From the NCBI GenBank assembly GCA_023144035.1, contig JAGLGM010000001.1, positions 1,091-65,090 of the forward strand: a DNA stretch of 64,000 bases, given 5' to 3'. Positions 20,253 to 60,144 of the stretch are shown here, piece after piece. Numbering within the stretch: the first letter of the stretch is position 1; each line of letters starts with the position of its first letter. Source of the stretch: Candidatus Pacearchaeota archaeon (GTDB lineage Archaea; Nanobdellota; Nanobdellia; Pacearchaeales; GW2011-AR1). The position numbers and the translations under genes are program-made. The notes under the pieces are model-generated. The model was not told the DNA's origin. It did no database searches and saw only the letters and a list, made by a program, of their open reading frames with translations.

Positions 20253-20253
20253 T
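20205..20253. repeat. 49-bp direct repeat copy 1 (3' end of cyclophilin gene)
   Basis: gacaaacctttagaagatgttataattatcaaagctattgttaactaat identical to 21333..21381; 20-bp subcopy at 20654..20673. Confidence 0.85.
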
Positions 20254-21332: not shown

Positions 21333-21381
21333 GACAAACCTTTAGAAGATGTTATAATTATCAAAGCTATTGTTAACTAAT
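21333..21381. repeat. 49-bp direct repeat copy 2
   Basis: identical to 20205..20253. Confidence 0.85.
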
Positions 21382-25308: not shown

Positions 25309-25431
25309 AGAAAATCAAGTTTTACTTTATTTTTATAATTTTTGGCCACATTAAAAACCTTAATTTTGTTGCCATTTTATAATAAAGATATTAAATAGAA
25401 AGCTTTAAATATCCAATAAAACTCTATATTC

Positions 25432-25620
25432 TGTCTCACTTCGGTGGGGCATGGAGAGTTTTGGACTTCGGTTCTTTGCTCTCCACTTATATTCATTTGG
25501 CTTCGGTCAAGTGATCGGGAGGGATTAGACTTCGGTTTTTTCTTTCCCACTTATATTCATTTGGCTTCGGTCAAGTGATCGGGGGTTAGACTTCGGTTTT
25601 TCTCCCACCTATATTCTTTC
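25432..25620. repeat. tandem 61-64-bp repeat (about 2.5 units) with multiple C-UUCG-G hairpins
   Basis: units start at 25464, 25528, 25589; shared core gacttcggtt...ccacttatattcatttggcttcggtcaagtgatcggg; GC-rich relative to surroundings. Confidence 0.7.
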
Positions 25621-41900: not shown

Positions 41901-42819
41901 TAGGAAAAAGGAAAAAGGAAAGTTCATCAAACGAATAAAAAAACCAATCAAATATTTGAATAACAAATTTAACCAAGTAGGTTTGTTTTTATTAAGAAAA
42001 GAGAAAACTCTTACTAAAGAAGAAAAATTATTATTTAAGAAAATAAAAAAACAAATAAAACAAAATCATAATCATGTTTTTAGATTATTAAAAAAGGAAT
42101 TTAAAAAAAATAATCCTAAAGAAATTCTACAAGAATTCGAAGAAAAGTTTATTAAAACAGGTAAGTTATCGAAAAAACATCTTAAAACTTTGATAGAAAT
42201 TATAAAAGCAGAAATAATTCTTAAAACAAAAAAATTACAAACAGAAATTAAAAAAGACAGTTTAAAAATTAATCACCAAATTAACAAAGTAACTAAAAAT
42301 TCAGCAGAATTGATTAATGATTTTCTTGAACAAGTTCACAAACCTAAATTAATTTCTGTTCAAAAAGAGAAAAAAAGATTAAAGAAATATAAAAAATATA
42401 TTACAAAATTATTTTTTATTAAAAAAACAAGAAAAAGAACAAAAGAAAAAAGAAGATTCTATTCTAAAAAAATTAAATTAATAAAACAATTCAGAAAAAA
42501 AGTTTTGAGAGATATTAAAAAAATTGGGAAAAATACCAATAAATTTCCTAGAAAAAGTAAAAAAAGATTAAAGAAATATAAAAAGTATCTTACAAAATTA
42601 TTTTTTATTAAAAAAGTAAGAAAAAAACAAAAGAGAAAACAAAAAAAACTAAAAAAATTCTTTGAGAAATTCGTTAAAAAAGAAAAGAAAGGACATAAAT
42701 TAATAATGAATTTTTTCAAAAAAGATTTAAATATTAAAAAAATGAAAAAGAAGAAATTAAATCTGCTTACATGGTTAAAGACATGGTTAAAAAAACAAGA
42801 AAAGAAAAAATTTGATTAA
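29911..42819 (+). CDS. giant surface protein (4302 aa): N-terminal signal anchor, cadherin-like VNDNPW repeats, many Ig/fibronectin-like repeats with dense N-x-S/T sequons, Thr/Pro linker, C-terminal TM anchor and ~440-aa poly-Lys/Arg cytoplasmic tail
   Basis: uninterrupted 12.9 kb ORF; VNDNPW/VNDQPW motifs at 31.2-32.0 kb; PGTPTTPITPTSTST linker ~40.7 kb; TM ~41.2 kb; K/R-rich 41.5-42.8 kb. Confidence 0.85.
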   Translation: MSYKGVIKFRRVKIKKDPLPKEKIIFSIFLGLFFFILMVSFFNNANLWNTGSVISENTGESKNTAIINFVIELTDAKHLDFNKNFISNIYEEVRELDNIWSKQISSEEYIRVTFEENLTSKKDITIYPRIISGDPRIEVYETNETQLIAEFTNLISNEYNKVFLTKLIGKQDTFDLLILGGSLIIDHIIDPEEILTPLLHANSQLNSVALDSAQITAITSDDASDITIGKAIILTVEMSELSGTIDTLTDANCSLVYSTATSYPADSITFEVYDSFGGNQVAISTLPASDGVDSLVHLLDLETTGLAASEVTTMVVYVTNTIAAKGYNLLVDQIYCTIDYTEAVPNTPPTLSGLPEVNDDEDFGTNNSVMDLWDYASDAEDADSVLTYGINSESETSIVDCDIYDSHYITCTSQANASGYSDVNVSVTDTGGLKDSDVFRFTVNTINDDPWSDSIANPASINEDSGLNDNIVSITTINTAFRDVEEDQSPTSCTIASETDTTAVDCEVDGSYNVDCTTQANQSGSNIVTLNCCDSGSSCTDMDTFTVTVDAVNDNPWNDGLSNPGNVNEDSGLADNIITKATLDNTFRDVEEDQSPTSYAIQSQTGSSIINCALDGSNNIDCTTQANQSGSNIVTVRLSDSGTLYTEMTFTITVDSINDQPWVDGLSDPTNLSYNSGLNQDVISSTEIDDNFRDVENDQNPSSVVILSQTHTEIVNCELDGHALDCTTQTNQHGISTVTLNYTDAEGLSITDSMDISITPDTTTPTIQVQSPTNNSYTVSTIYFNATASETIDTWIVNYNGTNITHTINTSLEVEDGNHNLLLYANDSANNFGLNDTIYFTVDTQEPSLSNEFSNETEISQNELFCLNITVTDSLNSIDTVYAEVWDTSSWANYSMSEDGTSCSGTSIDGIYGVEIIGSNVGLWNYSKVYANDSLNNLNSYDFSDLTINVTAPADSTYPQFANFQTYPSNNSEYSLNYNYQFNSTITFTNSTVYLSFNGENYSATNDTVDNFYVNTGSISAGTYDYFWWSYGNGSLKNYNQSNTKDYTIATNNSDCQVLFNETSSLEYGNSFRVYTDCDSTFTLYKNGTTIDNNSEQNLGADAYNFTVQRADATNYTNYYDEAQFIISQATPVMTYYLNSVQNNISLNYPGTINASAYTTVGTINIYRNGTSVTSENNLDINLVAGYYEYLFNVTGNANYSDVSNEYLYFELNQSTSDCQVLFNETSSLEYGNSFRVYTDCDSTFTLYKNGTTIENNSEQNLGADAYNFTVQRADATNYTNYYDEVQFIINQAIGEVATYIDNLRNNNSVLLNTERWLNATIINPNSGNIKLYYDDNLINQGNSPLSNLTNFTSEGVFNISAIYDGNENYTSDIETWWVTVSSDSAPTINIIYPENTFYNTDIIVLNYTVVDDIDLSHCWYSLNNGTTNSSFDSNCANVTGLTANQGSNTWFVYANDSIGQESLDFVTFTKDTIYPNFTSYEKNPATPNEDQDIQVNVTITESNIDKVILEWDSTNYTITTSNNNEYYFTINNGNYTAHDSVTYYWYANDTAGNINKSTQQSFTVANQIPSVSAPEVNNTTPYTNDLISCNSGTFSDDDAEDTEQARYFKWYDTDVEISGQTSQTLDLTTAGLDKGDVILCSIRVYDGYDNSSYQNSSNSATIQNSNPIISNLQTTVSWNANGSTYTYDYEVTDLDSDSFIWYDNTTLFNINSGTGVISDIPTENEAGTYLIEINVSDGTVNTTDIFSYTINDVGSPNIDFQPPTETNESQLTRDYIQVNITASDSIGIDTITIYLYNQTSLVNETTNPTSPYFVNFTNLPDEFYYFNATVNDTSGNTNQTETITVSTDTGAPTINSVAPTETSGIHKNQNYVEVNVTASDPNLDKIIIRLYNSAHTQIDSTTTSSSPNFANFTGLNNGLYYYNVTANDTFGNTDSLETKNITLDTTKPSVLYNPSTDADNSFVNRNWILINISANDTNLDSARMEFDSTNETFANNDENNYWENKTSLSNGDYSFYSWANDSAENYNFTTTRTVTVDTINPLIDFAIETSINNSNLSQNYIFVNATLTETNFQNITYKLYNSTSLVNETIYTTQTLNINWTLLPNEIYTYNITTSDKASNLNSTATRTITLDTVLPQLNIIYPQSNTYTVDITQLNYTYTETIPDKCWWSNNSGIWNSSLQTCGTNWTGLTSNEGSNTWTIYMNDSAGNENSTSVIFTKDTAYPAVTINSPLNQTYDTTTILFNVTATDGGGISACEYSLSDGLDNNSMSQSGNFWTATNSSMIQGSHTVNFYCNDSSGNLNDTKQETFFIDSIYPLISFTTGTENNDTSLVRNWIFANVTVTENNFENITYILYNSTEEVNTTTYTTEIKEINWTGLSDEVYTYNVTICDLVNKCNTTETRTIRLDTSNPEIYYNPNTDSNNSFVNKNWVFINITASDLTKDSVRLEWGGTNETFSNSDGDLYWENKTGLSETVYNFYAWINDSSGNLNSTATRTVTIDLTKPSITNLVESPTDPTSWTSSSTYQFNATITDTNLDTVLIEFDNVNYTPTKTGDVYNLTLNNLVAGNYNYYWYANDSAGNVNQTSDSYTINKNTENCQILFNESSPQTYPATFLVYTDCNSDFTLTKNGTTISNNTEQILSASAYNFSVQRTDTVNYSNTIDESQFIVNQATGNITLLINDSALNQSGPYGTQTNVSATTSYGSVTLYRNETEITSENNVYVTLAANYYNYTAYSSGDQNHSSASITKFVTITKTNSEINLTLNETRGNITIVQDSEIYLNTTTISGDSSATLKMYDSGTLINQGNSPIINLTTFSSVGEFNITGIYVESENFTGYSETWWVNVTETPDTENPSVASLTKTPSSPTTYSLSQIYEFNATITDNRNIHTVLIEFDGTNYTPTNLVGNIYNFTINNLSVGNYNYRWYANDTSGNMNSTENSSYIINQATPSLSLNANPSWSETYLTQTTVTGSECPAQLTSECKLYRNDTGIVDNPNIVTLGVGIYNYTYNTTGNTNYTSYSNSSNLIISQNTGSCSIVFNESSSITYPSTFKVWTNCTSDFILYRNQTTIDNNSEQNLGAGAYNFTVMRTDATNYTNYYDEQIFQINKATGEVATYIDNQQSNKSLEQYTEIYLNATLETGTGNIKLYNNETLINQGSSPLNNLTNFTIIGLYNITTIYDGNENYTSDIETWWVNVTEADVTPPQISIIYPQNISYSEIQTQLNYTASDNFGLNLCWYSVDNGQTNTTKNCNENITGLNSGQGSSTWNVYANDSKNNLNFSSVTFFVDSILPTIQFESPTETSGNSLGKNYLQVNVTASDDNLNTITFYLYNSTSLVNETSYLSFPYFINYTGLSAETYYFNATANDTLGNNISTETRNISLVLPELTIYKPNNETYISSKDIPLRYSAEYEDYVWYNINQTENITITGNTTFNTTQGQHTLYLYANNTLGETVKNVSFSVDIAKFVVFYNEFKDEGSSTDFNQSSYEDIQNLSDIVLENADYGKIEFNEIINLTDDTNISDNEADLDTYINISSNLIEIDSTVLPNFNKSATLYLYNLTFITPRILKDGVICPSTICTQQSYSGGTLIFNVTGFTTYSAEEIPGTPTTPITPTSTSTGGGWSIECIKDSDCEEEDQVCLNSKCVKLFDIKITNFESPVKLGEFFEFTYLLKGMANISGDVQVLFWIEKEGESVTSGSDVIYVGNFEEKIETTKIFLPSTVASGTYQFFVKLNYEGYTVQSHRTIEIEVEGEIAKITSIEEINFLKKYVISFLIGLAILILGLIFYIERKKIKEKFLQEEKCIKKHKTSILVFCLFLVIGILAYYLKLFDLAAKTILKLIKSPYLFYILGAIILLIILKRLITIAKKREFVNKFKKWKNKRRIKKRLKKKYKSEVKKIKKHLKTVTKIRAERKQEARRKHRKEYIKALIRFRIRKKKKATSKKRKKKIKKSHKLKREKFKAKLKKKIQKFFFKLSKLKILKKHKEKIKEKRKINKPRKKEKGKFIKRIKKPIKYLNNKFNQVGLFLLRKEKTLTKEEKLLFKKIKKQIKQNHNHVFRLLKKEFKKNNPKEILQEFEEKFIKTGKLSKKHLKTLIEIIKAEIILKTKKLQTEIKKDSLKINHQINKVTKNSAELINDFLEQVHKPKLISVQKEKKRLKKYKKYITKLFFIKKTRKRTKEKRRFYSKKIKLIKQFRKKVLRDIKKIGKNTNKFPRKSKKRLKKYKKYLTKLFFIKKVRKKQKRKQKKLKKFFEKFVKKEKKGHKLIMNFFKKDLNIKKMKKKKLNLLTWLKTWLKKQEKKKFD
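33070..33766. repeat. recent internal duplication in giant gene (208 bp x2, ~5 mismatches, period 489 bp)
   Basis: 33070..33277 vs 33559..33766 near-identical; more divergent copies near 37.7 and 39.0 kb. Confidence 0.85.
41500..42819. repeat. low-complexity Lys/Arg-rich coding region with internal repeats (KKRLKKYKKYxTKLFFIKK x2)
   Basis: 42370..42430 vs 42565..42625 similar; AAA/AAG-dominated. Confidence 0.7.
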
Positions 42820-46455: not shown

Positions 46456-47253
46456 ATGGCTGTATATTCACATTCTAGACTAAATATGTTTGAACAATGC
46501 CCTCTTAGATATAAATACAGATATATTGATAAAAAGAAACCAGATATTGAAAAAACAATTGAAGCTCATTTAGGAAGTATAGTTCATGATGTTCTAGAAT
46601 TAATTTATATTGAAGCAAAAAATAATAAAGTTTTAACAATAGATGAAATAATAAATTATTACTCAGAAAATTGGCAAAAAGATTATTCTGAAGATATTTT
46701 AGTTGTAAAAGACAACAAAACAGTTAAAGATTATTTTAACTTAGGTGTTGAATTTTTAGTGAGTTATTACAACACCCACCAACCGTTTAAAGACGGAACA
46801 ATGGAATGTGAAAAAAGGATTTGGATAAATCTTGATGAAGCAGGAAAATATAAATTAATGGGATTTATTGATAGATTAGTTTATAATTTTGAAACAAAAG
46901 AATATGAAGTTCATGATTATAAAACAGCAAACAGTCTTCCTACTCAAGAAAAAATAGATAATGATAAACAATTAGCTCTTTATTCAATTGCAATCAAAAA
47001 TTTATTTGGACATGATAAAGAAGTTGTTTTAATTTGGCATTATTTGGCTCATAATAAAAAAATAGAATCTCGAAGAACAAACGAACAACTTCAACAACTT
47101 AAAGAAGAAACTTTAAAATTAATAGATGAAATAGAAGCAACAAAAACTTTCCCACATAATAAATCTCCTCTTTGTGGTTGGTGCCAATTTAAACCTAGTT
47201 GTGAAGCTTGGAAATCAGAAATCCAAAGACCTTTAGATATTTATGGTGATTAA
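46456..47253 (+). CDS. Cas4-like PD-(D/E)xK nuclease with 4-Cys cluster (solo, no CRISPR context)
   Basis: N-terminal SRLNMFEQCPLRYKYRY, GFIDRL, EVHDYKT (D/ExK), QLALYSIA (QxxxY), C-terminal CGWCQFKPSC. Confidence 0.65.
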   Translation: MAVYSHSRLNMFEQCPLRYKYRYIDKKKPDIEKTIEAHLGSIVHDVLELIYIEAKNNKVLTIDEIINYYSENWQKDYSEDILVVKDNKTVKDYFNLGVEFLVSYYNTHQPFKDGTMECEKRIWINLDEAGKYKLMGFIDRLVYNFETKEYEVHDYKTANSLPTQEKIDNDKQLALYSIAIKNLFGHDKEVVLIWHYLAHNKKIESRRTNEQLQQLKEETLKLIDEIEATKTFPHNKSPLCGWCQFKPSCEAWKSEIQRPLDIYGD

Positions 47254-47301
47254 TAAAAGAAATATTTAAATACTATAGCCACTATAGTTGTTATAGGTAA
47301 A

Positions 47302-47511
47302 ATGGAAACATCAACAATTCAGTTAAGCAAAGAAACAAAAAAGAAAATCTCATCTTTTGGAGCAAAAGGAGAAAGTTATGAAGATATACTTTTGAGATTA
47401 TATAAAAGTGCTGTTGAAAGACAACTCCATGATTTTTTATATAAAGAAGATGATAATTTTATTTCTATAGAAAAAGCACTTAATAAGGCCAAGAAAAAAT
47501 GGCAAAAGTAG
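47302..47511 (+). CDS. VapB-like (PF02697-type) antitoxin, ESYEDIL motif
   Basis: TIQLSKETKKKISSFGAKGESYEDILLRLYK; overlaps downstream gene. Confidence 0.45.
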   Translation: METSTIQLSKETKKKISSFGAKGESYEDILLRLYKSAVERQLHDFLYKEDDNFISIEKALNKAKKKWQK

Positions 47512-47846
47512 AAATTACAAAAAGTCTCGAGAAAAAAATAAACAAAAAATTTAAAGCTGAATCTATAAAAGTATTTGAGTTGCTTTATTCTTTAAAAGAA
47601 AATCCAAAAAAAGGAAAATTATTAGGAAATATCGGAGAAATTGTTCTGAAAGAAATTAAGTATAAATCATTTAGATTTTATTTTATAACAAATGGATATA
47701 AATTAAGGATTTTTAAAATAGAAGAACTAACAGACTTATTAATAAGATTTGTGAGAATGTCTAATAAAAAAGAACAACAAAAAGTTATAAATGAAATAAA
47801 AAATGTTTTGAGGAAAATTGAAAAAGAAAAACCTTTAGACCTTTGA
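47499..47846 (+). CDS. putative toxin partner (RelE-like beta-strand pattern, uncertain)
   Basis: 115 aa; KYKSFRFYFITNGYKLRIFKI; no PIN acidic residues. Confidence 0.35.
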   Translation: MAKVEITKSLEKKINKKFKAESIKVFELLYSLKENPKKGKLLGNIGEIVLKEIKYKSFRFYFITNGYKLRIFKIEELTDLLIRFVRMSNKKEQQKVINEIKNVLRKIEKEKPLDL

Positions 47847-47880
47847 GATAATTAATTTTTATTTTCTAAAGCACGTTTTT

Positions 47881-48318
47881 TCAACATTGCAAATTCTGTA
47901 TCCTTTTTTCACTAATTGGAGATCCATTGTAATTCGGCTTTTCTTCACATGTTGGACAATAAGGAACTTGTTCATATTCACACTTACCTGAACCAGACAT
48001 AGGAAAAGGCCCATCATGTATTGGGTGAGCAACTTCTATAGCTAAAATTTCTGAATCACAATCTAAACAAACAAAATCTTCTCCATTATTCATATAAATT
48101 ATATTTGAACCAATTTTTTTATTATATTCAATTCCGTCTTTAATTGCAACTTCAGGTTTAAAAGTACTCCAAGAAGGAACTTCAAAAATCTTAAATTCTA
48201 AATTAAGTTTCTTAACTTTATCTGATAATTCTTTCTCTGACATATAAATTTCATTCAAAATCAGTTTATAAAAATTATGAAACAATAAAAGATATATTAA
48301 TATAATATTATACAACAA
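47881..48318 (-). CDS. Cys-rich zinc-ribbon hypothetical protein
   Basis: CLDCD...CEYEQVPYCPTCE. Confidence 0.4.
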   Translation of the reverse strand: MLYNIILIYLLLFHNFYKLILNEIYMSEKELSDKVKKLNLEFKIFEVPSWSTFKPEVAIKDGIEYNKKIGSNIIYMNNGEDFVCLDCDSEILAIEVAHPIHDGPFPMSGSGKCEYEQVPYCPTCEEKPNYNGSPISEKRIQNLQC

Positions 48319-48374
48319 TAATCCTTAAAAAGTTAAATTTATATAACAAATATTATTAATGTAAATATAAAAAA

Positions 48375-49064
48375 ATGTGTTTCACTCCAATAGTTTCTAT
48401 TTCAATAGCAATAGTTGAATTTACATTAGCAAGCATTCTTTTACTCTTTTTCCCAAAATCTGAATTTAGGAATTTTTTTGCTATCTTTATTTATTTGCTT
48501 GGTCTTTATCAGTTTACTGAATTTATGCTTTGTTCTGGAAATGCTATTTTTTGGGCCATGGCTGGTTTTGTGACATATAGTTTTTTACCTGCAATTTCTT
48601 TACACGCTGTTTTAAGAATTTTTAAAAAAAAGTTTAATATTATTTGGGTTTATCTTATTCCTTCTTTTGCAAGCTTCTTTGCAATTATAACCCCTGGATT
48701 TATTATTAAAGCAAGTTGTGAAAAATATTTCATTAGTGTTGAAACAATTATGACTTCTTCACCATCTTTATTGTTATTAATATCATTTATGATTTATATT
48801 GCATATTATTTTGGTTTCTTATTTTTTGTTTATTTTATTATTCTTAAAGATTATTCAAAACAAAAAAATAAAATTAAAAGAGAAATTGAATTAATAGAAA
48901 TGATAAGTATTTTACTTATGGTAATTCCAACATTAGTTTTACTTATTATTTTCCCTGTATTTGGAATAATGTTTCCCTCTGTTTTATGTGCATTTGGAAT
49001 CTTTGTTGCTATTTCTGCATTTATAGGGGTTTATTTAAAAAATAAACTAAAAAAGAAAAAATAA
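48375..49064 (+). CDS. polytopic membrane protein
   Basis: 229 aa, ~7 TM. Confidence 0.5.
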   Translation: MCFTPIVSISIAIVEFTLASILLLFFPKSEFRNFFAIFIYLLGLYQFTEFMLCSGNAIFWAMAGFVTYSFLPAISLHAVLRIFKKKFNIIWVYLIPSFASFFAIITPGFIIKASCEKYFISVETIMTSSPSLLLLISFMIYIAYYFGFLFFVYFIILKDYSKQKNKIKREIELIEMISILLMVIPTLVLLIIFPVFGIMFPSVLCAFGIFVAISAFIGVYLKNKLKKKK

Positions 49065-49320
49065 AGAATTACTCTTTTTTTGCTTTCATTTTACCACAAG
49101 CTTCTTTTAACTCACATCTATTACAAATACCTGAATTTTCAGACCATTCTTTTGTGCCAAAACAACTTTTTTCTGTTTGTTTGCTCTGTAATTGACTTTT
49201 ATTCATTAAAAAGCGTCTCATTCACGCTTTATATAACCTTACATTTGGATTAAATTAGAAATTTTAATAAGGAAGATACATCACAACAATACTTAAAAAT
49301 TCTTATTTTATTAAGATTTT

Positions 49321-49668
49321 ATGGGAGATTTAGAAAACTTATCTCAAACAGAAATACAAACTACTGAAAAAATACAAGAATTATTAAAAATACTTTCTGA
49401 CAAAAAATGTAGAAATCCAAAAGGAAAGAATTTATCAATTTTTTCTAAAAAAGATCATTATCATTTACCTTCATCTCAAAAAAATGTAAGAATTATAGAT
49501 ACTTGTAAAATGACTAAAAAACATCCTTTTTATATAAGATATTTTGCAAGGCAAGAATTAAAAGAAATTTACAAAGAATTATCTGATGGACAAGAAAAAA
49601 ATCAAGTAAAAGATATGCTTTCAAAAACTGGAGTTTATAATTGTCTTATGAAAAAAATTGGTTTATGA
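49321..49668 (+). CDS. hypothetical protein
   Basis: 115-aa ORF. Confidence 0.35.
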   Translation: MGDLENLSQTEIQTTEKIQELLKILSDKKCRNPKGKNLSIFSKKDHYHLPSSQKNVRIIDTCKMTKKHPFYIRYFARQELKEIYKELSDGQEKNQVKDMLSKTGVYNCLMKKIGL

Positions 49669-49712
49669 TTATTGGTTTTTGAGGGTTAAATAAAAAATTA
49701 AAAAGAAAAAAG

Positions 49713-50015
49713 CTAATCTTGAGAATTTAAGATTCTCTCTTCTGTTTCATCTGAGAAATCTAAAAATAAAGGATATTTAAGATATGTCTTAAATTTTGTC
49801 CTAAAAATTTCATCTTGTTCTCTAACATAATTAACTACCATTTTTAATCCTTTATTACATTTTTGATTATCAGCCATATAAATTGCTAATTCTTTTGGAT
49901 TCATTGTTCTTAATCTTTTTAAAACAGAAGATTCCAAATTTTCTGTATTAGGATTTTCAAATAAAGAAACCAACTCTTCCACAGATTTAGGATAATTCAT
50001 CATTCTGTCAACCAT
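49713..50015 (-). CDS. small hypothetical protein with conserved upstream motif
   Basis: 100 aa; motif TTCTAGTATAATAATACTTAAA ~30 bp upstream. Confidence 0.4.
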   Translation of the reverse strand: MVDRMMNYPKSVEELVSLFENPNTENLESSVLKRLRTMNPKELAIYMADNQKCNKGLKMVVNYVREQDEIFRTKFKTYLKYPLFLDFSDETEERILNSQD

Positions 50016-50041
50016 ACCTTTTATTCTATCTTATTATTTAA

Positions 50042-50060
50042 GTATTATTATACTAGAATT
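50042..50060 (-). promoter_or_regulatory. promoter-like motif copy 1 (GTATTATTATACTAGAATT on + strand)
   Basis: shared with 50293..50320 and 50627..50650. Confidence 0.45.
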
Positions 50061-50262
50061 ATTCATCCTTCTTCTTAAAATTATAATTAAGTAAATTTTG
50101 AACTATTTGTTCTTCCATAACTACTCTGGCTTCTAACATTTTTGAGGGAGGCATAGCAAGACAATTAGATATAAATTTCTTATAAACTTCCTTATTTTTT
50201 TCTATATATTTAACTGCCTTTTCATAAGACATATAACCTATATTTTTTAAATTGTTAAGCAT
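50059..50262 (-). CDS. small hypothetical protein with conserved upstream motif
   Basis: 67 aa. Confidence 0.4.
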   Translation of the reverse strand: MLNNLKNIGYMSYEKAVKYIEKNKEVYKKFISNCLAMPPSKMLEARVVMEEQIVQNLLNYNFKKKDE

Positions 50263-50292
50263 ATATTTTTAAGTTAAAGGACTTTTTTAAAT

Positions 50293-50320
50293 ATTATTAT
50301 ACTAGAATCAATCATTCATC
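50293..50320 (-). promoter_or_regulatory. promoter-like motif copy 2, also carries 19-bp copy of gyrA 3' end (50302..50320)
   Basis: tattattatactagaatcaatcattcatc; ctagaatcaatcattcatc identical to 53751..53769. Confidence 0.5.
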
Positions 50321-50348
50321 ACAATTATTGTTAGAAATCTTACAAAAT

Positions 50349-50600
50349 TTATTTTACTAGCCCTTTTAATTCATTTGCAACTTCTTCTGAAAGATTCTTA
50401 CACATTATTAAAAATTTTCCATCAATTGACTTTGTAATAACCTGACCATCATTTTTTAGATAAAAACATGCTGATTTTTCTTTTTGGTCTATTTGTATAT
50501 TTTCTTTTATTTTATCTAAATAATCTGTTATTCCACCTATTTGCATAACACTGCATACTAAAGATCCTTGATATATCCAATTGACTTTTTCTAAACTCAT
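50349..50600 (-). CDS. small hypothetical protein with conserved upstream motif
   Basis: 83 aa. Confidence 0.4.
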   Translation of the reverse strand: MSLEKVNWIYQGSLVCSVMQIGGITDYLDKIKENIQIDQKEKSACFYLKNDGQVITKSIDGKFLIMCKNLSEEVANELKGLVK

Positions 50601-50626
50601 ACAAAATCCATCAATCCTTTATTTTT

Positions 50627-50650
50627 AAAGATTATTATACTAGAACTAAT
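50627..50650 (-). promoter_or_regulatory. promoter-like motif copy 3
   Basis: agattattatactagaactaat ~45 bp upstream of ATG 50600. Confidence 0.45.
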
Positions 50651-50697
50651 AGAGGTTAAGAAGGAAATTATTTAAGTGCAAGGTTCTTAAAAAAGAT

Positions 50698-50883
50698 ATG
50701 AAATATAAAGTACACAAATTGAATCTTAAGTTATCAAAAGAATCTAAGATGTTAGAAAACTTCCTTAATAATTTAAAGGGAGAAGTAGTATCAATAATAC
50801 CTGATGTTAGAAATTTTTTCTTATTTTATGGTGCAAGAGTAAGTTCTGTTATTATTGTTGAAAAGATAAAAGGTAAGAAATAG
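50698..50883 (+). CDS. small hypothetical protein
   Basis: 61-aa ORF. Confidence 0.25.
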   Translation: MKYKVHKLNLKLSKESKMLENFLNNLKGEVVSIIPDVRNFFLFYGARVSSVIIVEKIKGKK

Positions 50884-50927
50884 TTAATTCTAAATATGAT
50901 TGGTTATTAGAGGATTCATGGAAAAAA

Positions 50928-51605
50928 TTATTTAATTTTTGATTCCAAATTGTGGTAAGATTTAGGAATATTTTCTACTTGTTCTATTTGATATTTTTGA
51001 GATTCTTTAGCTTTATTAGGAGTTGCAGAATATATTAAACCCATTGCCCCCATAGACGCAGCAATTAAACCAACTGCAATTGTTTTTTTAATTTTTGAAC
51101 CTTGCCTTTTTACTAAATTAGGATATGATTTTCTATTACATTCTTTTATTCCTGTTAAATCTCTAAAAACATCTATAGAATATCCCATAGGACTTCCATT
51201 AATTCCTCCGAGTATTGAAGCACTTATAGTTCCTATTGCTATTTTCTTGAAATCTAAATCTTCTCCAGCCATTAATTGAGACAAAGTATACATTGGAGGT
51301 GTAATAGCTAAATTCAATGCAAAAGCATACCCTATATCATGAGCATGTTGAACTACTTCTTTTGTTTTATTTGTGATTTTAAACAATTTTTTAGATAAAT
51401 CTCTCCCTTTTCCAAAAACATAACCAAGACCTCCACAAGCAACAATAGTTCCTACTACTCTGGCATTTATTGACATTTCGTCAGACATTCCAGCAACACC
51501 TACTTCAATAGCAGCAAAAAGAGGATGAGATTCTACTAACATTGCAAGAGTATCTACTGCATAAAACTTTGAGTCTTTCTTTATCCAATCTTTAACTTTT
51601 CCCAT
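50928..51605 (-). CDS. hypothetical protein (Gly-rich, amphipathic)
   Basis: 225-aa ORF. Confidence 0.45.
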   Translation of the reverse strand: MGKVKDWIKKDSKFYAVDTLAMLVESHPLFAAIEVGVAGMSDEMSINARVVGTIVACGGLGYVFGKGRDLSKKLFKITNKTKEVVQHAHDIGYAFALNLAITPPMYTLSQLMAGEDLDFKKIAIGTISASILGGINGSPMGYSIDVFRDLTGIKECNRKSYPNLVKRQGSKIKKTIAVGLIAASMGAMGLIYSATPNKAKESQKYQIEQVENIPKSYHNLESKIK

Positions 51606-51686
51606 ATTTCTCTCTTATTCTTTTTACTTATAAATCTTACTAATTATAATCAACAAATATAAAGATCTTAGATTCTTAACTAATTC

Positions 51687-51818
51687 ATGGAAAGAAAAAC
51701 ACTTCTAATAATATTAATAATACTAATTTTAGGAGTAATAGGATTATCTGTTTTCCTTATTTTCCTTAGACAGAGAGCAACTCTTAAAAAACACCTTATT
51801 TTCCCTATAAAAATATAG
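51687..51818 (+). CDS. possible 43-aa single-TM micro-protein
   Basis: MERKTLLIILIILILGVIGLSVFLIFLRQRATLKKHLIFPIKI; below ORF-track cutoff. Confidence 0.25.
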   Translation: MERKTLLIILIILILGVIGLSVFLIFLRQRATLKKHLIFPIKI

Positions 51819-51937
51819 GATAGTGTGTGTGAGCAACACCTTTATAAAGAATAAATCATTTTAATTATTACATCAAAAGCCATGAGGTTCAACCAATGCT
51901 ATTTGGGGGGGCTAATTGGGTGTTACATTCTAACGAA

Positions 51938-52534
51938 TCATTGATGTAACTTTTTCCTTTTATTAAGAAATTTTTCTATATCCTCTAATGTAATATTAAC
52001 ATAAGTATCTAAACGATTCTCAATATCATTTGACATCAATTTGGCATACCTATGTGCTAAAGACCAAGGAGGCAATTTTTGATGTAATGGAACCCCTATT
52101 TTCATTCTTCCTTTCTCTTGCAATAAAAATTTTAAATTTTGGTCTATTATTCGTTCTTTATTAGAAAAATCTCTACAAATTGTTAAAGAAATTTTTTCCT
52201 TTATGTTTAATGATTTAAACAAGTAATAAATAATTATACAATATATTCTAACTTTAAAAGTGCCTCTCTTAGTTTCAAATGAGTTATAAGGATAACGATA
52301 TTTATTTTCTTCCCATTTTTTTACTATTATTTTTATAAGTTCTTCATCGAATCTAAATCCTTTTATTTGACTTTTTCCATTCACACTTTGTTTATTTGCT
52401 ATACAAATAGTATATCTTGGAATAAATAAATCGCTTCCACTAACATCAATTTCAAATTTCATATAAAAGAATATCCCTCCCAGTTTATAAGACTTTGGCG
52501 TTACTTTATTTTTTTCAGAATAAAACCTAATCAC
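51938..52534 (-). CDS. hypothetical protein
   Basis: 198-aa ORF. Confidence 0.4.
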   Translation of the reverse strand: MIRFYSEKNKVTPKSYKLGGIFFYMKFEIDVSGSDLFIPRYTICIANKQSVNGKSQIKGFRFDEELIKIIVKKWEENKYRYPYNSFETKRGTFKVRIYCIIIYYLFKSLNIKEKISLTICRDFSNKERIIDQNLKFLLQEKGRMKIGVPLHQKLPPWSLAHRYAKLMSNDIENRLDTYVNITLEDIEKFLNKRKKLHQ

Positions 52535-52949
52535 AACCCAAATATTTCCTCATATTCCTATTACTCAAATCTTTCTTAGGTTTAGAAAAATGCACATCAT
52601 ATTCCAAACCCATTGAGTGATACACATTTGTCCATTCATTATGGTCAGTTAGATTATCATTATTTATATCAGCTACTAATTTCAATTCATTATATAATTT
52701 ATTTCTTTCATTGAAATATTTAATATTACTATGTACATTGTAAATAAGAAACAAACTCATCGCTCCAATAATTAATAGGCCTTTTAATCTTTCTTTTCTT
52801 GTAAATGTTTTATCTTCTAAATCTGTTTCATGTAAGCTCATCTTTCCCTCATTTATTAAAGAACCTCCTACTTTAATTTTTGTTTTTCCCATTTTAACCT
52901 CCGTACCTTCTGTATTTTTTACACCATCTGAAGAAATTATGAAAGTCAT
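52527..52949 (-). CDS. hypothetical protein with one TM segment
   Basis: 140-aa ORF overlapping neighbours. Confidence 0.4.
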   Translation of the reverse strand: MTFIISSDGVKNTEGTEVKMGKTKIKVGGSLINEGKMSLHETDLEDKTFTRKERLKGLLIIGAMSLFLIYNVHSNIKYFNERNKLYNELKLVADINNDNLTDHNEWTNVYHSMGLEYDVHFSKPKKDLSNRNMRKYLGCD

Positions 52950-53617
52950 TTTTTAATTTCCTTATAGCTTTTTATACATTCTTTAGATAACTCTCCTCTT
53001 CCTAATACTAAATATCTAAAATTACCACTTCTTAATTCACTAGAAAAACCCATGGGAACACTAGAAATTATTACCTCTTTTCCAGCTCTTTTAATTAATT
53101 CCATAGAAGGAATAAAATCGGCATCTCCAGAAAGAAGGATACAACAATCACATTCTTCTTCAATTAAACATTTAGCAATCATATCTACAGCTATTTTCAC
53201 ATCAATTCCTTTTTCTTTTTTTAAAACAGTCCCTAAGGAATCTATAAAGGCAGTTTCTACTGCTGGTTTGCACACTTTACATAAATCTAAAAGCCCTATT
53301 ATCTCTTTTCTCTCAGCAATAATTTCTTTAGTTGAATTTCTTTGCAATTTTCTTACTGTGACTTTAAGCCCTTCTTTTTTTAAATCAGATAAATATTCCA
53401 TATGCCTATAATACATTGTTTGCCCATCTGCAAGACTTGGAACAGAATTATAATATCTTATTTCTACGACATCTAAATCAAACTTTTTAGCAATAAATTT
53501 AGAAAGTTTCCAAAAATCAATATCTGATGGCTTTGAAACCCATTTTTTTACATTATGATACCAATTATTTCCATCTATAAATACAATTACTCTTTTGTTA
53601 GACATATAAAAAAACAA
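52946..53617 (-). CDS. NYN/LabA-like PIN-fold nuclease domain protein
   Basis: VFIDGNNW...GIDVKIAVDMI...ILLSGDADF conserved acidic residues of NYN domain. Confidence 0.65.
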   Translation of the reverse strand: MFFYMSNKRVIVFIDGNNWYHNVKKWVSKPSDIDFWKLSKFIAKKFDLDVVEIRYYNSVPSLADGQTMYYRHMEYLSDLKKEGLKVTVRKLQRNSTKEIIAERKEIIGLLDLCKVCKPAVETAFIDSLGTVLKKEKGIDVKIAVDMIAKCLIEEECDCCILLSGDADFIPSMELIKRAGKEVIISSVPMGFSSELRSGNFRYLVLGRGELSKECIKSYKEIKK

Positions 53618-53750
53618 GGAAAGGATATAAATAAATCTTTCTAGATTATAAGCCCCGCATTCCTCCTATAAAAGAAGTCATACGGGGGATATTATAATAT
53701 ATTATAATCAAATATATTTATAAACCTTACTAAATCCCTTATAAATTTTC

Positions 53751-53769
53751 CTAGAATCAATCATTCATC
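53751..53769. repeat. 19-bp direct repeat (gyrA 3' end, ctagaatcaatcattcatc), partner at 50302..50320
   Basis: exact 19/19 match 3.45 kb apart. Confidence 0.7.
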
Positions 53770-56700
53770 CCCATTGCCATTGTGAACCTTAATCAAATCA
53801 GTCACTTTATCACCTTGTGCAAGCTTAACAATTCTAACACCTTGAGCTGCCCTACCCATTACTCTGATATTCTTTAAAGAAGTCCTTATTACTATTCCTT
53901 TAGCAGTTGTCATTATGATTCCATCTTCTGCATTTACTGACACAGCATTAACAACATCTCCTGTTTTTGTTGATATTTTTAAATTAATAACACCCTTACC
54001 ACCTCTTGCTGTTTTTCTATAATCTTTAACAGCAGTTCTTTTACCATAACCATTTTCAGTAATTGTAAGAATTGCTTCTGTATCTAATATTTCTAAACTT
54101 ACTACTTTATCTTCCTTATCCATTCTAATTCCTGTAACACCATAACTTGCTCTTCCCATATTTCTTATAGAATCAGAATCAAATCTAATTGCTTTTCCTT
54201 TTTGAGTAGCTAGTGAAACTTCTTGACCTTTTTTAACAACTTCTACTCCAATTAAAAAGTCAGAATTATCAACAGGTAAATTAATAGCTTTAATACCTGA
54301 AGCTCTTGGTTTTGCAAAATTACTCAAAGCTATTTTCTTAACCATTCCTTTTTGAGTAGCCATAAATAAATTATCTTCAAAAGTATTTACAGAAATAACA
54401 TTTGTAATTTTCTCATCTTTTAAACTTAAAAGATTAATCAAAGCTTTTCCTTTACTATATTTTTCTGCACTAGGTATATCATATGCTTTAAGCCATAAAA
54501 CCCTTCCTCTTGTAGTAAAGAACATTAAATAATCATGAGTAGAACAAGTAATCAACTGCTTTACAAAATCACCAGTTGCTAAATTACTTCCAATACTTCC
54601 TTTCCCGCCTCTTTTTTGTTCTCTATATTCTTTAACATCCATTCTTTTACAATATCCTTTATCTGTAATAGTCACAACAACTTCTTTTTCTTGAACCAAA
54701 TCTTTCTCAGAAATCTCAGATAATCTTTTCATAACTTGCGTTCTTCTATTGTCTCCATATTTATTCTTTAACTCATTAATTTCTTTTACAATTATTTTTA
54801 AAACTTCCTTAATATCTCCTAAAATCTTTTCATATTCTGCTATTTTTTCTTTCAACTCTTTAGCTTCTTTTTTAAGTTTATCAACTTCTAATGAAGTTAA
54901 TTGCTGTAACTTAGTTTCTAAAACAGCTTGAGCTTGTTTTCTAGTTAATTTAAATTTATTAATCAAACCTTCCAAAGCTTCTGCAGTATTCTTAGATTTT
55001 TTAATTAAAGTTATAACAGCATCTATATTTTTTAAAGCAATTAACATACCTTCAACGATTTCTTGTCTTTCTTTTGCTTTTTTAAGTTCATATTTAACTC
55101 TATTAGTAATCATAATTTTTCTATACTTAACATATTCTTCAACAACTTGTTTTAAATTCATAATCTTTGGTTGTCCGCCTACTAAAGCTAAAAAATTAAC
55201 ATTAAATGAATCTTGAAGTCTAGTATATTTATACAAAGAATTAATAACAAATTTAGAATCTACTCCTTTTCTTAATTCAATAACAATTCTAATCTTTCCT
55301 TTAGAAGATTCATCTCTTAAATCAGAAACATCTTTAATCTTTTTATTTTGAACAAGGTTTGCAATTTGTTCAACTAATGTAGATTTATTTAACATATAAG
55401 GAATCTCTGTAATTACAATTGCTTCTTTTTTCTTGATTGTCTCAGTAGTTAATCTTCCTCTCATTATCATTCTTCCTTTTCCTGTTTTGTATAATTCTTC
55501 CATATCTCCAAAAACAGTTCCACCAGTAGGAAAATCAGGTCCAGTAACAATTTGAGAAAGTTCAGGAATTGTTATATTTGGTTTTTTAATATAAGCAATA
55601 AGAGCATCACATACTTCTGTTAAATTATGTGGAGGAATATTAGTAGCCATACCAACTGCAATACCTGTTGCACCATTTAACATTAATAATGGAATTTTAC
55701 CAGGAAGTAATTCAGGTTCTTTCATTGAATTATCATAATTAGGATTAAACTTTACTGTCTCTTTATCAATATCTTGTAATACTTCCATAGAGATTGGCAT
55801 TAATCTTGTTTCTGTATTATGACTAATAAATCCATTTGAAATAAAAGAATGACAATTGCTATCTACTTTAACAGAATAAACTTTTTGAGAACCTACATCT
55901 TCTATTGAAACAACTCTATCAAATAGATATTGATATGTCAAAAAGAACTCAAATATAGAAGAGTAATCTTCTCCTGTTCTTTGTTTTAAAATTTGGCAGA
56001 TTCTTTCATAATTCTGCCCCATACTAGAATACCTATCAAAATTGTGCTTCATAACAAATTCATCACCAGAATATTTTGCCAATCCCCTAATAAAATCAGA
56101 AATAAAAGGAACAAAATCTGTAGTGGAATAATCTTTTTTATAATTTACAACAACAAATTCTAATTTGGCACTCTTTCTCTGAGAAATAAAACCTATCTCT
56201 TTGTAAAATCTTGAAATATTTCTTTTACTCCTCAAATATAATTTAAAAACATTCTTATATTTATCAAATCTCTTAAAACTTTCTATACCAAATCTTAAGA
56301 AAACTAATTGTAATTGGGTTATAAGTTTTTCACTCATAGAACAACAACTTAGTTCAATCATCTTCTTAGAATAACTTATACTTCCATCTCCTTCAAAATA
56401 AGCTCTTAAAAATGAAGACAAAACTTTCTTTGGGGAAATAAACAATAAATTAGGTATTGTTTTCTTACCAGATTTTACAGCTTCTAATCCAATATTTCTC
56501 AAAAATTCAAGAGTATATCTACAATGACATTCTAATCTAAAATAATCTTTTTTCCCGTATGAACTTGGCTTTCTTTTAAAATTATGTAAAGTGCTATCTG
56601 GAAATAATTTTCTCCATTTTTCTTCAAATATTTTTATTAATTGCTCATCAGAATTACAAAACTCTAACTTGTTTTTAGAAATTGAGCCTTCTGAAATCAG

Positions 56701-58713
56701 TAAACCTAAAATCATTGCTAAATCATTATTTAATTTTTCAGGTAAAATCCTTTTATGTTGATGTTTACTTTTAATTACAGGACAATATTTTTTTAATTCA
56801 ATCTCATTTTCAGGCCAAAAATTATCATTTAACCTATCTAAAACAGTAATATCTCCTTCTTTAATTTGTTCTAACAATTTCCAACAAAAAGCAGGCTTTC
56901 CAAATTCATCCTTTATTAAAGTTAAAACAGGGTGGTTTTTGGTTCCAGTTAAATTATACCCTTTATTTGTAGTTATTTTTATTGTTTCATGCTCTCCTGA
57001 ATCAAACCATTTTGAAGCATTGTTAATTTTTTTGTCTTTACTCATTATCTTTAAATCTATATCTTCTTTAGTTGAAATTTCATCAGCTCTCTGTAAACCT
57101 TTTTCAGTAACAATTAAAGAATCTCCTGCAACACAATATCTCATAGCAGCAGGAGGATCACCGTCAATTGAGTTATGTACAAAAACTCCAGAAGATAAAG
57201 CAAAATTATGTGTCTTATCTACAGTAATATCATAAACAGCAACAAATTCATTTAATAATTCTGTCCTAACAACTTTATGATTTCCATTTAATTCTAAAAG
57301 AACTAAATTTTTACTATCTTGAAAGTATTTTTTAATTCCTAAATCCCAGCTAGTGAAGCTTTTTGTTCCAAAAACTTCTTTTCTCACTCTTTCATAATTT
57401 TCATTATTTATACTTAAATTATTTTCAATAAGATGGCTACATATATTAAGAAACTTTTTCTTTCCAGTAAGATTAGTCTCTCTTTTTTTATTAGAAGCAA
57501 TTATTTTTTCATTAAACAATTTTTTATATTTTGGAATTTGCCACAATCCTTTCATAGTTATAGAAGCTGTTTTTCTTATTTCTTCAATTCTTTCAGGATG
57601 TTCTTTTAAATATTTTTTATTGATTTCACTCAAAGTTATAGTCATTTGTTTCCTATAATCATCTTTTTTCCAATTTTTCAGATTTCTTTCAGACATTCTT
57701 TTAGAATAAGCTTCTCTATTTTTTTTATTACTCCAAAATCTCTTTCTACCTTCATCTAATTTCTTTCTATATTCAGGGTCTGTTTTATGTTTTTGAGAAG
57801 TAAAATTATGGTGAACATTCCAATGTTCTTTCCAAAACATCCTTCTAATATTATCTGGATCATTATTTAATTTATCAAAGTCTACATGATGACGAATCCT
57901 ACCTGTGTTTTTTTGATAAATATTATTGTGTATATTCCAATCATCAGCAAGCATATGTACAAAATCCCAAGAATCTTTTTTTGGTTGAAAAACCATATTA
58001 TAGCCAATAAGTTTTGGATTAGAATCATCTTTTTTTGTAGACAATTTCATATAAACAGGCATTAATGAATCTCCAGAATCTAGATCTTTAGCTTCTTTAT
58101 AACTTCCATCTCTTAACATAAATTTGTGATTTAAAGTACATTTTATTTCTTCACCATTATCTAAAACTACTTTCATAACTTCTGTATTTATTTTGGTCTT
58201 TCTTGGATTTTTAATTTCAGCCATTTTAACATTTAAATCCTCATCAATTGTAAAAGTAAAATTTCTTTTCCCTTGCTTATTTTCTTTTATCAACTCTAAA
58301 AAAGATAAATCTCTTCCATCAGTTAATTTAACTTCAGTATCTGCAGTAAAACAACCAAAATTACCTTGTCCAAATACTAAAGGATATCTTAAAGAAAAAT
58401 TCTGTGCCATTCTAACCATTGCATCATAAACAGCAACATCTCCGTGAGGATGATATTTACCAATAACATCTCCAACTAATCTTGCGGACTTTTTAGTTTG
58501 AGTATTTGGTTTTAAACCCATTTGATTCATTGCATATAAAATTCTTCTTTGAACAGGTTTTAATCCATCTTCAATTGCAGGTATAGCTCGACTAACAATA
58601 ACACTCATAGCATAATCTAAATATGCTTTTTTCATTTCTCCAGTTACTTCTGTATTAACTATTCCTTTTTCCATATCTTTTAACTCTGATTCATCTGCTT
58701 TCTTTGGTGTCAT
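53761..58713 (-). CDS. gyrA: DNA gyrase subunit A with two in-frame inteins (extein ~816 aa)
   Basis: [18 protein letters not shown]|intein|[12 protein letters not shown]|intein|TETRL...[15 protein letters not shown]; C-terminal beta-pinwheel repeats. Confidence 0.9.
55816..57135 (-). mobile_element. gyrA intein 2 (440 aa) with LAGLIDADG homing endonuclease, at classical MRY|TE site after catalytic Tyr
   Basis: starts [13 protein letters not shown] block B, LAGLIDADG-like [12 protein letters not shown] and [12 protein letters not shown], ends FISHN|T. Confidence 0.8.
57172..58353 (-). mobile_element. gyrA intein 1 (394 aa) with HNH-type endonuclease insert, between GNFG and SIDGD
   Basis: starts CFTADTEV, block B TLNH, ends VFVHN|S; internal [33 protein letters not shown]-like; no LAGLIDADG. 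Confidence 0.7.
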
Positions 58714-60057: not shown

Positions 60058-60144
60058 CCCCTTTATGCGAAGTTACTACGTCTACGAGCATCATGCTACT
60101 TCTTCTCCCTTTATGCGAAGTTACTACGTCTACGAGCATCATGC
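60058..60144. repeat. tandem duplication: two identical 38-bp units (ccctttatgcgaagttactacgtctacgagcatcatgc) 49 bp apart between two genes
   Basis: 60058..60096 and 60107..60144; each unit on minus strand reads ...GCATGATGCTCGTAGACG...AAAGGG i.e. copies of the stop/RBS/ATG junction. Confidence 0.8.

Follow-up and report, generated by a model that had tools for sequence, protein, structure and literature searches.

The question posed by this locus is why the end of a gyrA gene should occur twice. The DNA analysed, called the window below, is a stretch of 64,000 nucleotides (positions 1,091 to 65,090 of contig JAGLGM010000001.1) from a Candidatus Pacearchaeota archaeon. It lies within a 241-kb metagenome scaffold (ENA ERZ23498471), encodes eIF2-gamma, S6e and L24e and has a G+C content of 27%, features that identify it as archaeal. 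An earlier note, made from the sequence alone, reported an exact 19-nt repeat that overlaps the gyrA stop codon and recurs 3.45 kb downstream, and it interpreted the repeat as the target duplication of one six-gene element. We arrive at a different answer: the 19-mer is the conserved core of a recurring unit, and the region following gyrA is probably a cassette array built by recombination at ~70-nt units, in which a gyrA tail is joined to a promoter.

The 19-mer, CTAGAATCAATCATTCATC on the forward strand and GATGAATGATTGATTCTAG on the gene strand, is present in exact form at 50302-50320 and 53751-53769, as the earlier note had it, and nowhere else in the window; no further copies were found there when up to two mismatches were allowed. 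On the gyrA strand it reads GAT GAA TGA ttgattctag, that is codons D-E, the stop codon and 10 nt downstream (TTGATTCTAG), and it is composed of a tail end (GATGAATGA), the spacer TTG and a junction, ATTCTAG. Both copies have sharp edges and copy A, at gyrA, leaves the gene intact. Copy A runs on into what we term a type-2 box and copy B into a type-1 box, such that the gene strand of copy B reads GATGAATGATTGATTCTAG-TATAATAATATTTAAAAA, the 19-mer followed by a promoter. Two matches were reached in none of 100 shuffles, with 0.01 copies of the pattern expected, and Markov surrogates of the window gave 0.03-0.18 exact pairs of at least 19 nt and similar complexity per 64 kb. Shuffles and surrogates thus agree with the earlier judgement that the pair is unlikely to have arisen by chance, and the relatives' arrays described below settle the matter. 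Two other candidates were rejected: a 19-nt match between 8450 and 50613 lies within a coding region and is attributed to chance, and a longer repeat was not supported, since the 60-nt flanks of the 19-mer align locally no better than shuffles, while an anchored test was marginal (p 0.002-0.02).

The decisive evidence derives from close relatives. Scanning of metagenome contigs for the 19-mer revealed a contig, L094, with a gyrA gene that is 88.6% identical in nucleotide sequence to that of the window and carries no inteins. A second contig from the same organism, L102, matches it at 100% in the overlap and extends its array to at least 15 units over ~8 kb, spaced at 345-552 nt. The ~70-nt unit of L094, TTCTCCTCAGATAAAGGTGTTAAGGTCCACAATGGGGATGAATGATTrATTCTAGTATAATAATGTTTAAA, consists of a pseudo-copy of the last ~14 gyrA codons with the stop codon, a short spacer, the 7-nt junction ATTCTAG and a consensus archaeal promoter; unit tails encode SDKGVKVHNGDE as against GDKVTDLVKVHNGDE in gyrA. 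The unit recurs 8-15 times in the arrays of close relatives, with E values down to 1e-23, and the 19-mer or a 1-nt variant of it is present at most of these units, between cassettes that are unrelated to the block lying between the two copies in the window.

The L094/L102 array comprises ~16 mostly single-gene cassettes, all directed away from gyrA. They include an AbrB/RelE-like toxin-antitoxin pair, a 543-aa ABC-F ATPase and 13 small open reading frames (ORFs) lacking Pfam matches, and some are paralogous, for example those encoding 100-, 117- and 109-aa proteins. The ABC-F gene (L094 3608-5287) scores 412 bits against a curated NCBIfam cut-off of 380 bits for ribosomal-protection-like ABC-F proteins and, because this family is typical of bacteria, it may represent a cross-domain acquisition. 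Beyond the array lie a D12 methyltransferase gene, a DpnI-like gene and other defence-like genes, and a 44-aa PD-(D/E)XK remnant occurs ~19 kb from gyrA. In a second strain, from another sample (L090), the units recur, and some of the cassettes are shared but differently ordered. Matches to the 19-mer in the TARA/JGI contigs L091, L093 and L095 were unrelated and ascribed to chance. A virus or plasmid carrying the site was also sought and rejected, the 19-mer and tail consensus having no match in IMG/VR, where the single promoter-box match (L096) lies inside unrelated sequence. We found no description of such arrays in the literature.

Alignment of all the copies defines which part of the unit is fixed. 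Most tails carry a shared derived deletion of ~10 nt (GGTCCACAAT versus GGTTCATAAT in the resident gyrA), and the tail at L090:2169 equals the full-length gyrA end of another allele. As the derived deletion is common to most of them, the tails are not copied afresh from the target whenever an insertion occurs, but move together with units or cassettes, or have been homogenised. All kinds of junction have just one element in common, ATTCTAG or a variant of it differing by a single base. It is at (A)ATTCTAG that three junctions without a tail set in, each after unrelated DNA (window unit D, L090:494 and L102:4692), and immediately beyond ATTCTAG three right-hand sequences begin: the type-1 promoter TATAATAATGTTTAAA, the type-2 box GAAAgTTTATAAGG (window unit A, and L102 2570 and 2949) and the ABC-F block at L094:3465.

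In the window a unit profile detects (nhmmer) matches at 53746-53792, 50621-50650, 50284-50325 and 50036-50068 and none elsewhere in the 64 kb. They correspond to four units, all on the minus strand: two complete (A and B), one short-tailed (C) and one promoter-only (D). Unit A (53736-53792; E 3.8e-6) contains the gyrA tail and the 19-mer at 53751-53769, the last 7 nt of which form the junction ATTCTAG (53751-53757), followed by a type-2 promoter-like box GAAAATTTATAAGGG at 53736-53750; the GAAAgTTTATAAG box also follows the junction in the L102 units at 2570 and 2949. Unit B (50284-50347; E 3e-6) carries a decayed tail at 50321-50347, the 19-mer at 50302-50320 ending in ATTCTAG (50302-50308) and the type-1 promoter TATAATAATATTTAAAAA at 50284-50301; its likeness to the tail beyond the 19-mer is not significant locally (anchored p ~0.002-0.02). 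Unit C (50036-50067; E 0.027) has a shortened tail, with the remnant GATGAATAA, ATTCTAG and the type-1 promoter TATAATAATACTTAAAT, and lacks the 4-nt spacer. Unit D (50621-50646; E 0.022) is a half unit with the junction GTTCTAG and the type-1 promoter TATAATAATCTTTAAAAAT and no gyrA tail; its profile match covers positions 50-79 only, with an exact copy of the promoter box, and its leader shares 87% identity with that of L094 unit 3.

A 15-mer box, TTCTAGTATAATAAT, occurs exactly three times (50044-58, 50293-307 and 50631-45), with no other copy in the window at up to one mismatch, and each time it precedes the ATG of one of the consecutive small genes h83, h67 and h100 by 37-39 nt. Many genes of the window show the consensus AATAATnTTTAAAAA ~30 nt upstream of the ATG, matching the unit, and by its position and consensus the 15-mer would be a textbook promoter for this genome. 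Each unit carries a box resembling a B recognition element and TATA box (BRE/TATA), TATAATAATnTTTAAA, ~30 nt before the cassette ATG, with putative promoter activity. Unit D is predicted to drive the 83-aa gene h83, TTTAA lying at -29 from the ATG. The earlier note had allowed that the 19-mer might belong to a promoter or terminator motif common to many loci; it is indeed part of a repeated promoter-bearing unit, but one confined to a single locus. A further degenerate junction and promoter, AATCTAG AAAGATTTATTTAT, is possible at ~53620-53646, 30 nt upstream of the start of the NYN gene that follows gyrA, the likeness being weak and judged by eye. It would fall within the spacer 53618-53735 (minus strand), which also holds a GC-rich hairpin (CCCCCGUAUGAC...GGAAUGCGGGG) at 53655-53690, between the type-2 box of unit A and the NYN promoter (region fold z = -2.0); the hairpin may be a remnant cassette or a small RNA.

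The extent of the variable region was defined by synteny across 80 gyrA loci from species-level relatives (metagenome-assembled genomes of Pace-, Woese- and Nanoarchaeota). In the conserved order, gyrB ... gyrA is followed by a PD-(D/E)XK gene, a PepSY-like gene and eIF2-gamma. Of the 44 relatives that possess the PD-(D/E)XK gene, 42 have it downstream of gyrA, 41 of them in convergent orientation, and in many only 34-600 nt separate it from the gyrA stop, whereas the gap in the window is 6.5 kb. There the PD-(D/E)XK nuclease gene occupies 46456-47253 on the plus strand (Pfam PDDEXK_1, 1.7e-32), with PepSY and eIF2-gamma next, as in the relatives. It is the true far edge of the variable region and conserved synteny resumes only there; since it ends at 47253, all 6.5 kb from 47254 to 53760 are lineage-specific and accessory, beyond the 3.45-kb block. 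Homologues of the genes in 47254-53760 were not found adjoining gyrA in any of the 80 relatives. The gap between gyrA and the PD-(D/E)XK gene is thus a hot spot varying in size from 34 nt to several kb. The earlier note was right that the DNA following gyrA is accessory and that copies of the gyrA 3' end mark internal boundaries. The 50.3-kb flank is not core DNA: it contains more cassettes (h67 and h100), and the left copy stands just upstream of the repeated promoter box. The comparison that the earlier note suggested, with relatives in which gyrA is joined directly to this flank, yielded no example among the gyrA loci and population contigs.

The gyrA gene itself (53761-58713, minus strand) anchors the locus, and the tail half of the unit is modelled on its last ~45 nt. 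It encodes 1650 aa because it carries two inteins (precomputed Pfam matches: DNA_topoisoIV, Intein_splicing, LAGLIDADG_3 and DNA_gyraseA_C); the gyrA products of the closest relatives have 811-845 aa and no inteins.

Among the 80 genome-database relatives no multi-copy array adjoins gyrA, and only single tail duplications occur, in two loci. In L060 the end of its own gyrA is duplicated exactly over 95 nt, with the repeats 1201 nt apart and flanking a 132-aa ORF, a fragment of a PD-(D/E)XK 3' end and a toxin-antitoxin pair homologous to that of L094. This fragment, 88 nt long, is 76% identical to the resident PD-(D/E)XK 3' end (11861-11948 versus 13165-13252), which suggests that the insert may derive in part from the homologous locus of another strain or species. 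In L068 an NYN gene directly follows gyrA and is succeeded by a 37-nt, 95%-identical copy of the gyrA tail ending in a different, more typical C-terminus; this NYN protein is only distantly related to that of the window (24% identity). In a third relative, L031, TTCTAGTATAATAAA stands directly after the gyrA stop, giving gyrA stop, TTCTAG and promoter, and is followed by a single gene; the relatives in general lack the whole 47.25-53.76 kb region. The sequence TTCT directly follows the gyrA stop in 6 of 77 relatives against 0.96 expected, in a post hoc count. The 192-aa gene following gyrA in L031 was compared with a 192-aa gene at the far end of the relative's island and proved not to be homologous.

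A comparable duplication occurs within the window at a cyclophilin gene (19677-20252). Its last 49 nt, including the stop codon (20205-20253), recur exactly 1128 nt downstream (21333-21381), with an extra 20-nt copy in between (20654-20673). The repeats enclose a HepT/MNT toxin-antitoxin pair and an ORF of 130 aa whose end is the copied tail (KAIVN*); the first tail is succeeded by a consensus promoter, AATAATTCTTAAAAAG, and two of the three copies by ATTCTT. This architecture matches that at gyrA. The parallel drawn in the earlier note therefore stands as regards the gene-end duplication, seen here as well as in L060 and L068, while the shared site-specific mechanism that it proposed is plausible, as a recurrent mechanism targeting gene 3' ends.

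We propose, then, that the array starts at the gyrA stop codon and fills the otherwise short gap up to the convergent PD-(D/E)XK gene, and that cassettes would be gained, lost and reordered by recombination at the units. Most likely a trans-acting recombinase, encoded elsewhere, would carry out site-specific exchange at ATTCTAG or beside it, with homologous recombination between the long similar units (70-95 nt) also contributing and perhaps accounting for the homogenised tails. A cassette array built by recombination at the units is the best-supported account. Site-specific exchange at ATTCTAG is favoured by the fixed junction, the unrelated single-gene cassettes in one orientation and the reuse of the gene end across species, and it agrees with the behaviour of archaeal integrated elements (PMC6563490). 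The array of the window would be an old remnant that is no longer polymorphic, in which a 3.1-kb segment from NYN to the AlaE-like gene forms the cassette nearest gyrA, and the 19-mer pair would bracket this segment together with the h83 cassette.

Several observations weigh against this proposal. All the data are metagenome assemblies. No recombinase was found near the array, either in the window ORFs scanned or in ~20 kb of the relative's locus, and the sole recombinase of the window, a 185-aa serine recombinase (4555-5112), lies 45 kb away with nothing linking it to the array. The unit shows neither dyad-symmetric arms around the junction nor hairpin potential, and the sequence separating tail from junction is variable (TTG, TTA, TTGATTA, GAGTTA), as would not normally be expected of a conservative crossover site. 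Some strain-to-strain breakpoints fall after the promoter or inside genes, off the junction, and the type-2 junctions do not count as independent events because they are possibly of common ancestry. Moreover, the 10-11 contigs of the window's own population all have the same gene order, with no presence/absence variation at the locus, so that mobility is evident only in the relative.

Some of these points favour the strongest competing explanation, which needs no dedicated recombinase. A module of gyrA tail and promoter would have been duplicated in tandem with a downstream gene, and segments recombining at the ~70-95-nt repeats would then be excised, reinserted, reordered and homogenised through gene conversion and ordinary homologous recombination, circles being inserted in Campbell fashion, while new genes would arrive by illegitimate recombination. 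The repeats are indeed long and >90% identical, with shared derived indels that suggest concerted evolution, some cassettes are paralogous (the 100-, 117- and 109-aa proteins) and the L060 repeat is 95 nt long, exact and species-specific; the heterogeneous breakpoints, the units devoid of recombinase-type dyad symmetry and the lack of a nearby recombinase are also as this explanation would have them. However, homologous recombination by itself does not generate novel joints at a fixed ATTCTAG, such as the three tail-less junctions and the three types of right-hand sequence. Besides, the cassettes are for the most part single genes, unrelated and sharing one orientation, and in distant species this gene end has been struck independently. 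We consider this explanation rather unlikely.

An explanation closer to the earlier note, that one 3.45-kb element (NYN to h83) was inserted by a single integrase event at the gyrA 3' end, the 19-mer being an att core or target duplication, fares worse and seems quite improbable. It would account for two exact, sharp-edged copies, one of which keeps gyrA intact, and 19 bp is typical of archaeal att sites (PMC6563490). Moreover, the promoter box after copy B is the one that adjoins the gyrA stop in L031, so that gyrA stop, 19-mer and promoter look formerly contiguous. Yet the 19-mer or a 1-nt variant marks most units of the relatives' arrays between cassettes unrelated to the block, and the block contains an internal half-unit (50621-50646) with a leader homologous to that of an L094 unit. 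It has no integrase, no inverted ends and a native composition, and neither an empty site nor an alternative location of the block was found. An equally good account is that the 3.1 kb from NYN to the AlaE-like gene entered an existing unit between ATTCTAG and the promoter.

Within the cassette-array reading, which we prefer, the block could have arisen in two ways. The whole of NYN to h83 may have entered by exchange between two units, leaving flanking 19-mers. Alternatively, the array was once gyrA-unit-h83-unit-h67-unit-h100, and the segment from NYN to the AlaE-like gene entered the first unit just after ATTCTAG, which would have split it into A (tail and junction) and D (junction and promoter). 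The second route is favoured, though neither is proven, by the homology between the leaders of unit D and L094 unit 3, and because units D, B and C are spaced at 250-340 nt, close to, if somewhat below, the 345-552 nt of the relative. Finally, although the window is 73% A+T and contains three other dispersed, chance-like exact pairs of 19-20 nt, all of lower complexity, a coincidental sharing of 19 nt by two unrelated AT-rich sequences, one by a promoter and one at a gene end, is extremely improbable given the expectations above (0.01 for the pattern, 0.03-0.18 for any such pair) and is refuted by the relatives' arrays repeating the 19-mer sequence with E values down to 1e-23.

How does such an array relate to known systems? 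Sedentary chromosomal integrons and integrase-less attC clusters (CALINs) have been reported from Archaea, Nanoarchaeota among them, being recognised there by their attC structure (PMC9668308). The gyrA array resembles them in being one-directional, in its mostly single-gene cassettes of unknown function with additional toxin-antitoxin cassettes, in the variation of cassette order and content between strains (L094/L102 versus L090) and in the presence of a bacterial-type ABC-F gene in an archaeal array. It differs in that the gyrA units yield no hairpin of the attC type. For both strands of the unit consensus, of L094 unit 3 and of window unit B, single-stranded DNA folding gave -1.7 to -3.0 kcal/mol (z +0.24 to +1.47); these values are no better than those of shuffles and the unit is therefore not attC-like. 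R''/R' boxes (RYYYAAC/GTTRRRY) were not seen in a search made by eye rather than with a scanning tool, the closest sequence, GTTAAGG, failing at the last position. No IntI or attI was found within ~20 kb, and Phage_integrase had no match in the scanned window ORFs or in the precomputed Pfam annotation of ~20 kb of the relative's locus. In addition, the array is headed by the gyrA stop codon rather than attI, its repeat stems from a housekeeping gene's 3' end, and the cassettes have individual promoters in place of a common Pc.

In Archaea, integrated elements are frequently targeted to the 3'-distal portion of protein genes; their att sites have a median length of 17 bp, and tandem arrays are formed (PMC6563490). 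Integrase-borne elements that use the 3' end of a tRNA gene or a protein-coding gene share with the gyrA locus direct repeats that copy the target 3' end and stop codon and leave the gene intact (the 19-mer in the window, 95 nt in L060 and 37 nt in L068), a core of 19 bp, and repeated use of one site giving tandem arrays and the same target in several species. In contrast, the cassettes of the gyrA array are only 0.35-0.55 kb, lack an integrase and stand at least 15 in a row, their tails with derived deletions propagate with the cassettes instead of being target copies, and the units include a promoter. No recombinase domain was detected in the proteins scanned across 49321-53617 or in the array cassettes, and neither an integrase nor a transposase in ~20 kb of the relative.

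Direct repeats at a gene 3' end also recall transposons and casposons, and tandem casposon insertions are known in ef-2 (PMC6563490). However, repeats of 19-95 nt with tails common to cassettes do not fit staggered-cut duplications. Inverted repeats at the block ends did not rise above shuffles (734 and 1869 of 2000 do as well), and no transposase or Cas1 domain was found in the scanned proteins.

Xer-dependent modules, such as IMEX elements and the pdif modules of Acinetobacter plasmids, are small, often encode toxin-antitoxin pairs, are bounded by short sites and lack a recombinase of their own. The gyrA cassettes are likewise small recombinase-less gene modules between short conserved sites, and a host enzyme presumably moves them in trans, but their units lie at a gene end rather than at a replication terminus or on a plasmid. 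A search for dif-like arms around a 6-8-nt spacer gave 11-nt pairs with at best 7-8 matching positions out of 11, a score reached or exceeded in 77-94% of shuffles; lacking dyad-symmetric arms, the unit is therefore not dif-like. The best reading of the gyrA locus is a gene-end-anchored, promoter-bearing cassette array with an integron-like layout and none of the integron hallmarks.

A bolder formulation is that some Pacearchaeota (DPANN) have built, independently, an integron-like gene-capture platform, with linear ~70-nt gyrA-derived units, a recombinase acting in trans at ATTCTAG, uptake of bacterial genes and a sister array at cyclophilin using the same machinery. As the promoter is fused to the unit, each captured cassette would be expressed on its own. 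We advance this tentatively, rating its chances as somewhat short of even. The genomes of DPANN archaea are tiny and their lifestyle is host-dependent, and little is understood of how accessory genes are gained and replaced in them. The present finding points to an array at the stop codon of an essential gene in which toxin-antitoxin, defence-like and ABC-F genes carry their own promoters and vary in order. Standard integron finders would miss it because they seek attC hairpins and IntI. If a dedicated recombinase exists, the array would be a second, independently evolved solution to the integron problem and a possible route of gene transfer from bacteria to archaea; if homologous recombination alone operates, a module of gene end and promoter can seed an evolvable array. 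The window supplies sequences with which these ideas can be tested, namely the unit, the ATTCTAG junction and two promoter types.

The genes between the two 19-mers are all on the minus strand, and their content is as described in the earlier note, with an NYN gene, three proteins lacking Pfam matches and micro-ORFs, to which an AlaE-like membrane protein can be added. The first gene after gyrA (52946-53605) encodes an NYN/LabA-like predicted nuclease (Pfam NYN 2.9e-16; PADLOC matches HEC-09 2e-15 and NYN 4e-11). It is followed by an ORF for a 140-aa protein (52527-52949) that has no Pfam, PADLOC or NCBIfam match; as this ORF overlaps both neighbours, it probably forms one operon with the NYN gene and that for a 174-aa protein (51938-52462). 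The 174-aa protein belongs to a conserved DPANN family of unknown function, whose more than 100 homologues in Pace-, Woese- and Nanoarchaeota (43-85% identity) are all devoid of Pfam domains; D6, D98 and E163 are invariant, and members occur as single genes in unrelated, varied genomic contexts. An RNase H-like fold is confidently predicted (AlphaFold2 predicted local distance difference test, pLDDT, 92), the best PDB matches being RNase HII/HI (E 2e-3, TM 0.5). The protein was considered as a hidden integrase and rejected, given that the RNase H-like fold yields only these weak RNase HII/HI matches and that the protein is missing from the relatives' arrays.

Next come the 225-aa AlaE-like membrane protein (50928-51605; Pfam AlaE 5e-7) and h83 (83 aa, 50349-50600), for which Pfam and PADLOC gave no family match and which occupies the same position in 10 population contigs. 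Because half-unit D lies internally at 50621-50646, the block holds at least two cassettes. Beyond it, still on the minus strand, are h67 (67 aa, 50059-50262), which ends ...D-E-stop inside the tail-like GATGAATAA, and the ORF h100 (100 aa, 49713-50015). The remaining lineage-specific accessory DNA (47254-49712) carries small genes on both strands, including one for a VapB/DUF7557-like protein at 47302-47511, and nhmmer detected no repeat units in it. The comparison of composition between block and core that the earlier note had suggested gave no foreign signal: GC is 0.271 in the block against 0.268 in the window and the tetranucleotide distance lies at the 47th percentile, so that a foreign origin on the grounds of composition was rejected. 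Short Logan contigs break at 51917-51946, beside a G7 run; we attribute these breaks to sequencing or assembly and not to a variant junction.

Other features of the window deserve mention. The serine recombinase gene at 4555-5112 (Pfam Resolvase 2.4e-31) stands, in a region that also takes in 2242-2706, among unannotated genes that include a PD-(D/E)XK_5 endonuclease; this region, with no repeat unit nearby, may be another mobile element. A ParE-like toxin gene (11346-11600) adjoins the only tRNA gene of the window, tRNA-Asp (11152-11223), and may mark another accessory insertion beside a conserved gene. Upstream of an aIF5B/IF-2-like gene, tandem ~64-nt modules at 25430-25610, with a 37-nt exact repeat at 25483 and 25547, are rich in hairpins of the C-UUCG-G tetraloop type and preceded by a promoter-like box; they may constitute an undescribed structured RNA, with no Rfam match at the gathering threshold. 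Between two small genes downstream of gyrB-HAD and upstream of gyrA, a 48-nt tandem duplication (38 nt exact) occurs at 60059-60144, each copy carrying a Shine-Dalgarno-like GGAGG followed by an ATG and a short ORF. Finally, a single ORF of 4302 aa (29911-42819) contains many families of internal repeats (copies of 230, 157 and 110 nt) and probably encodes a giant surface protein.

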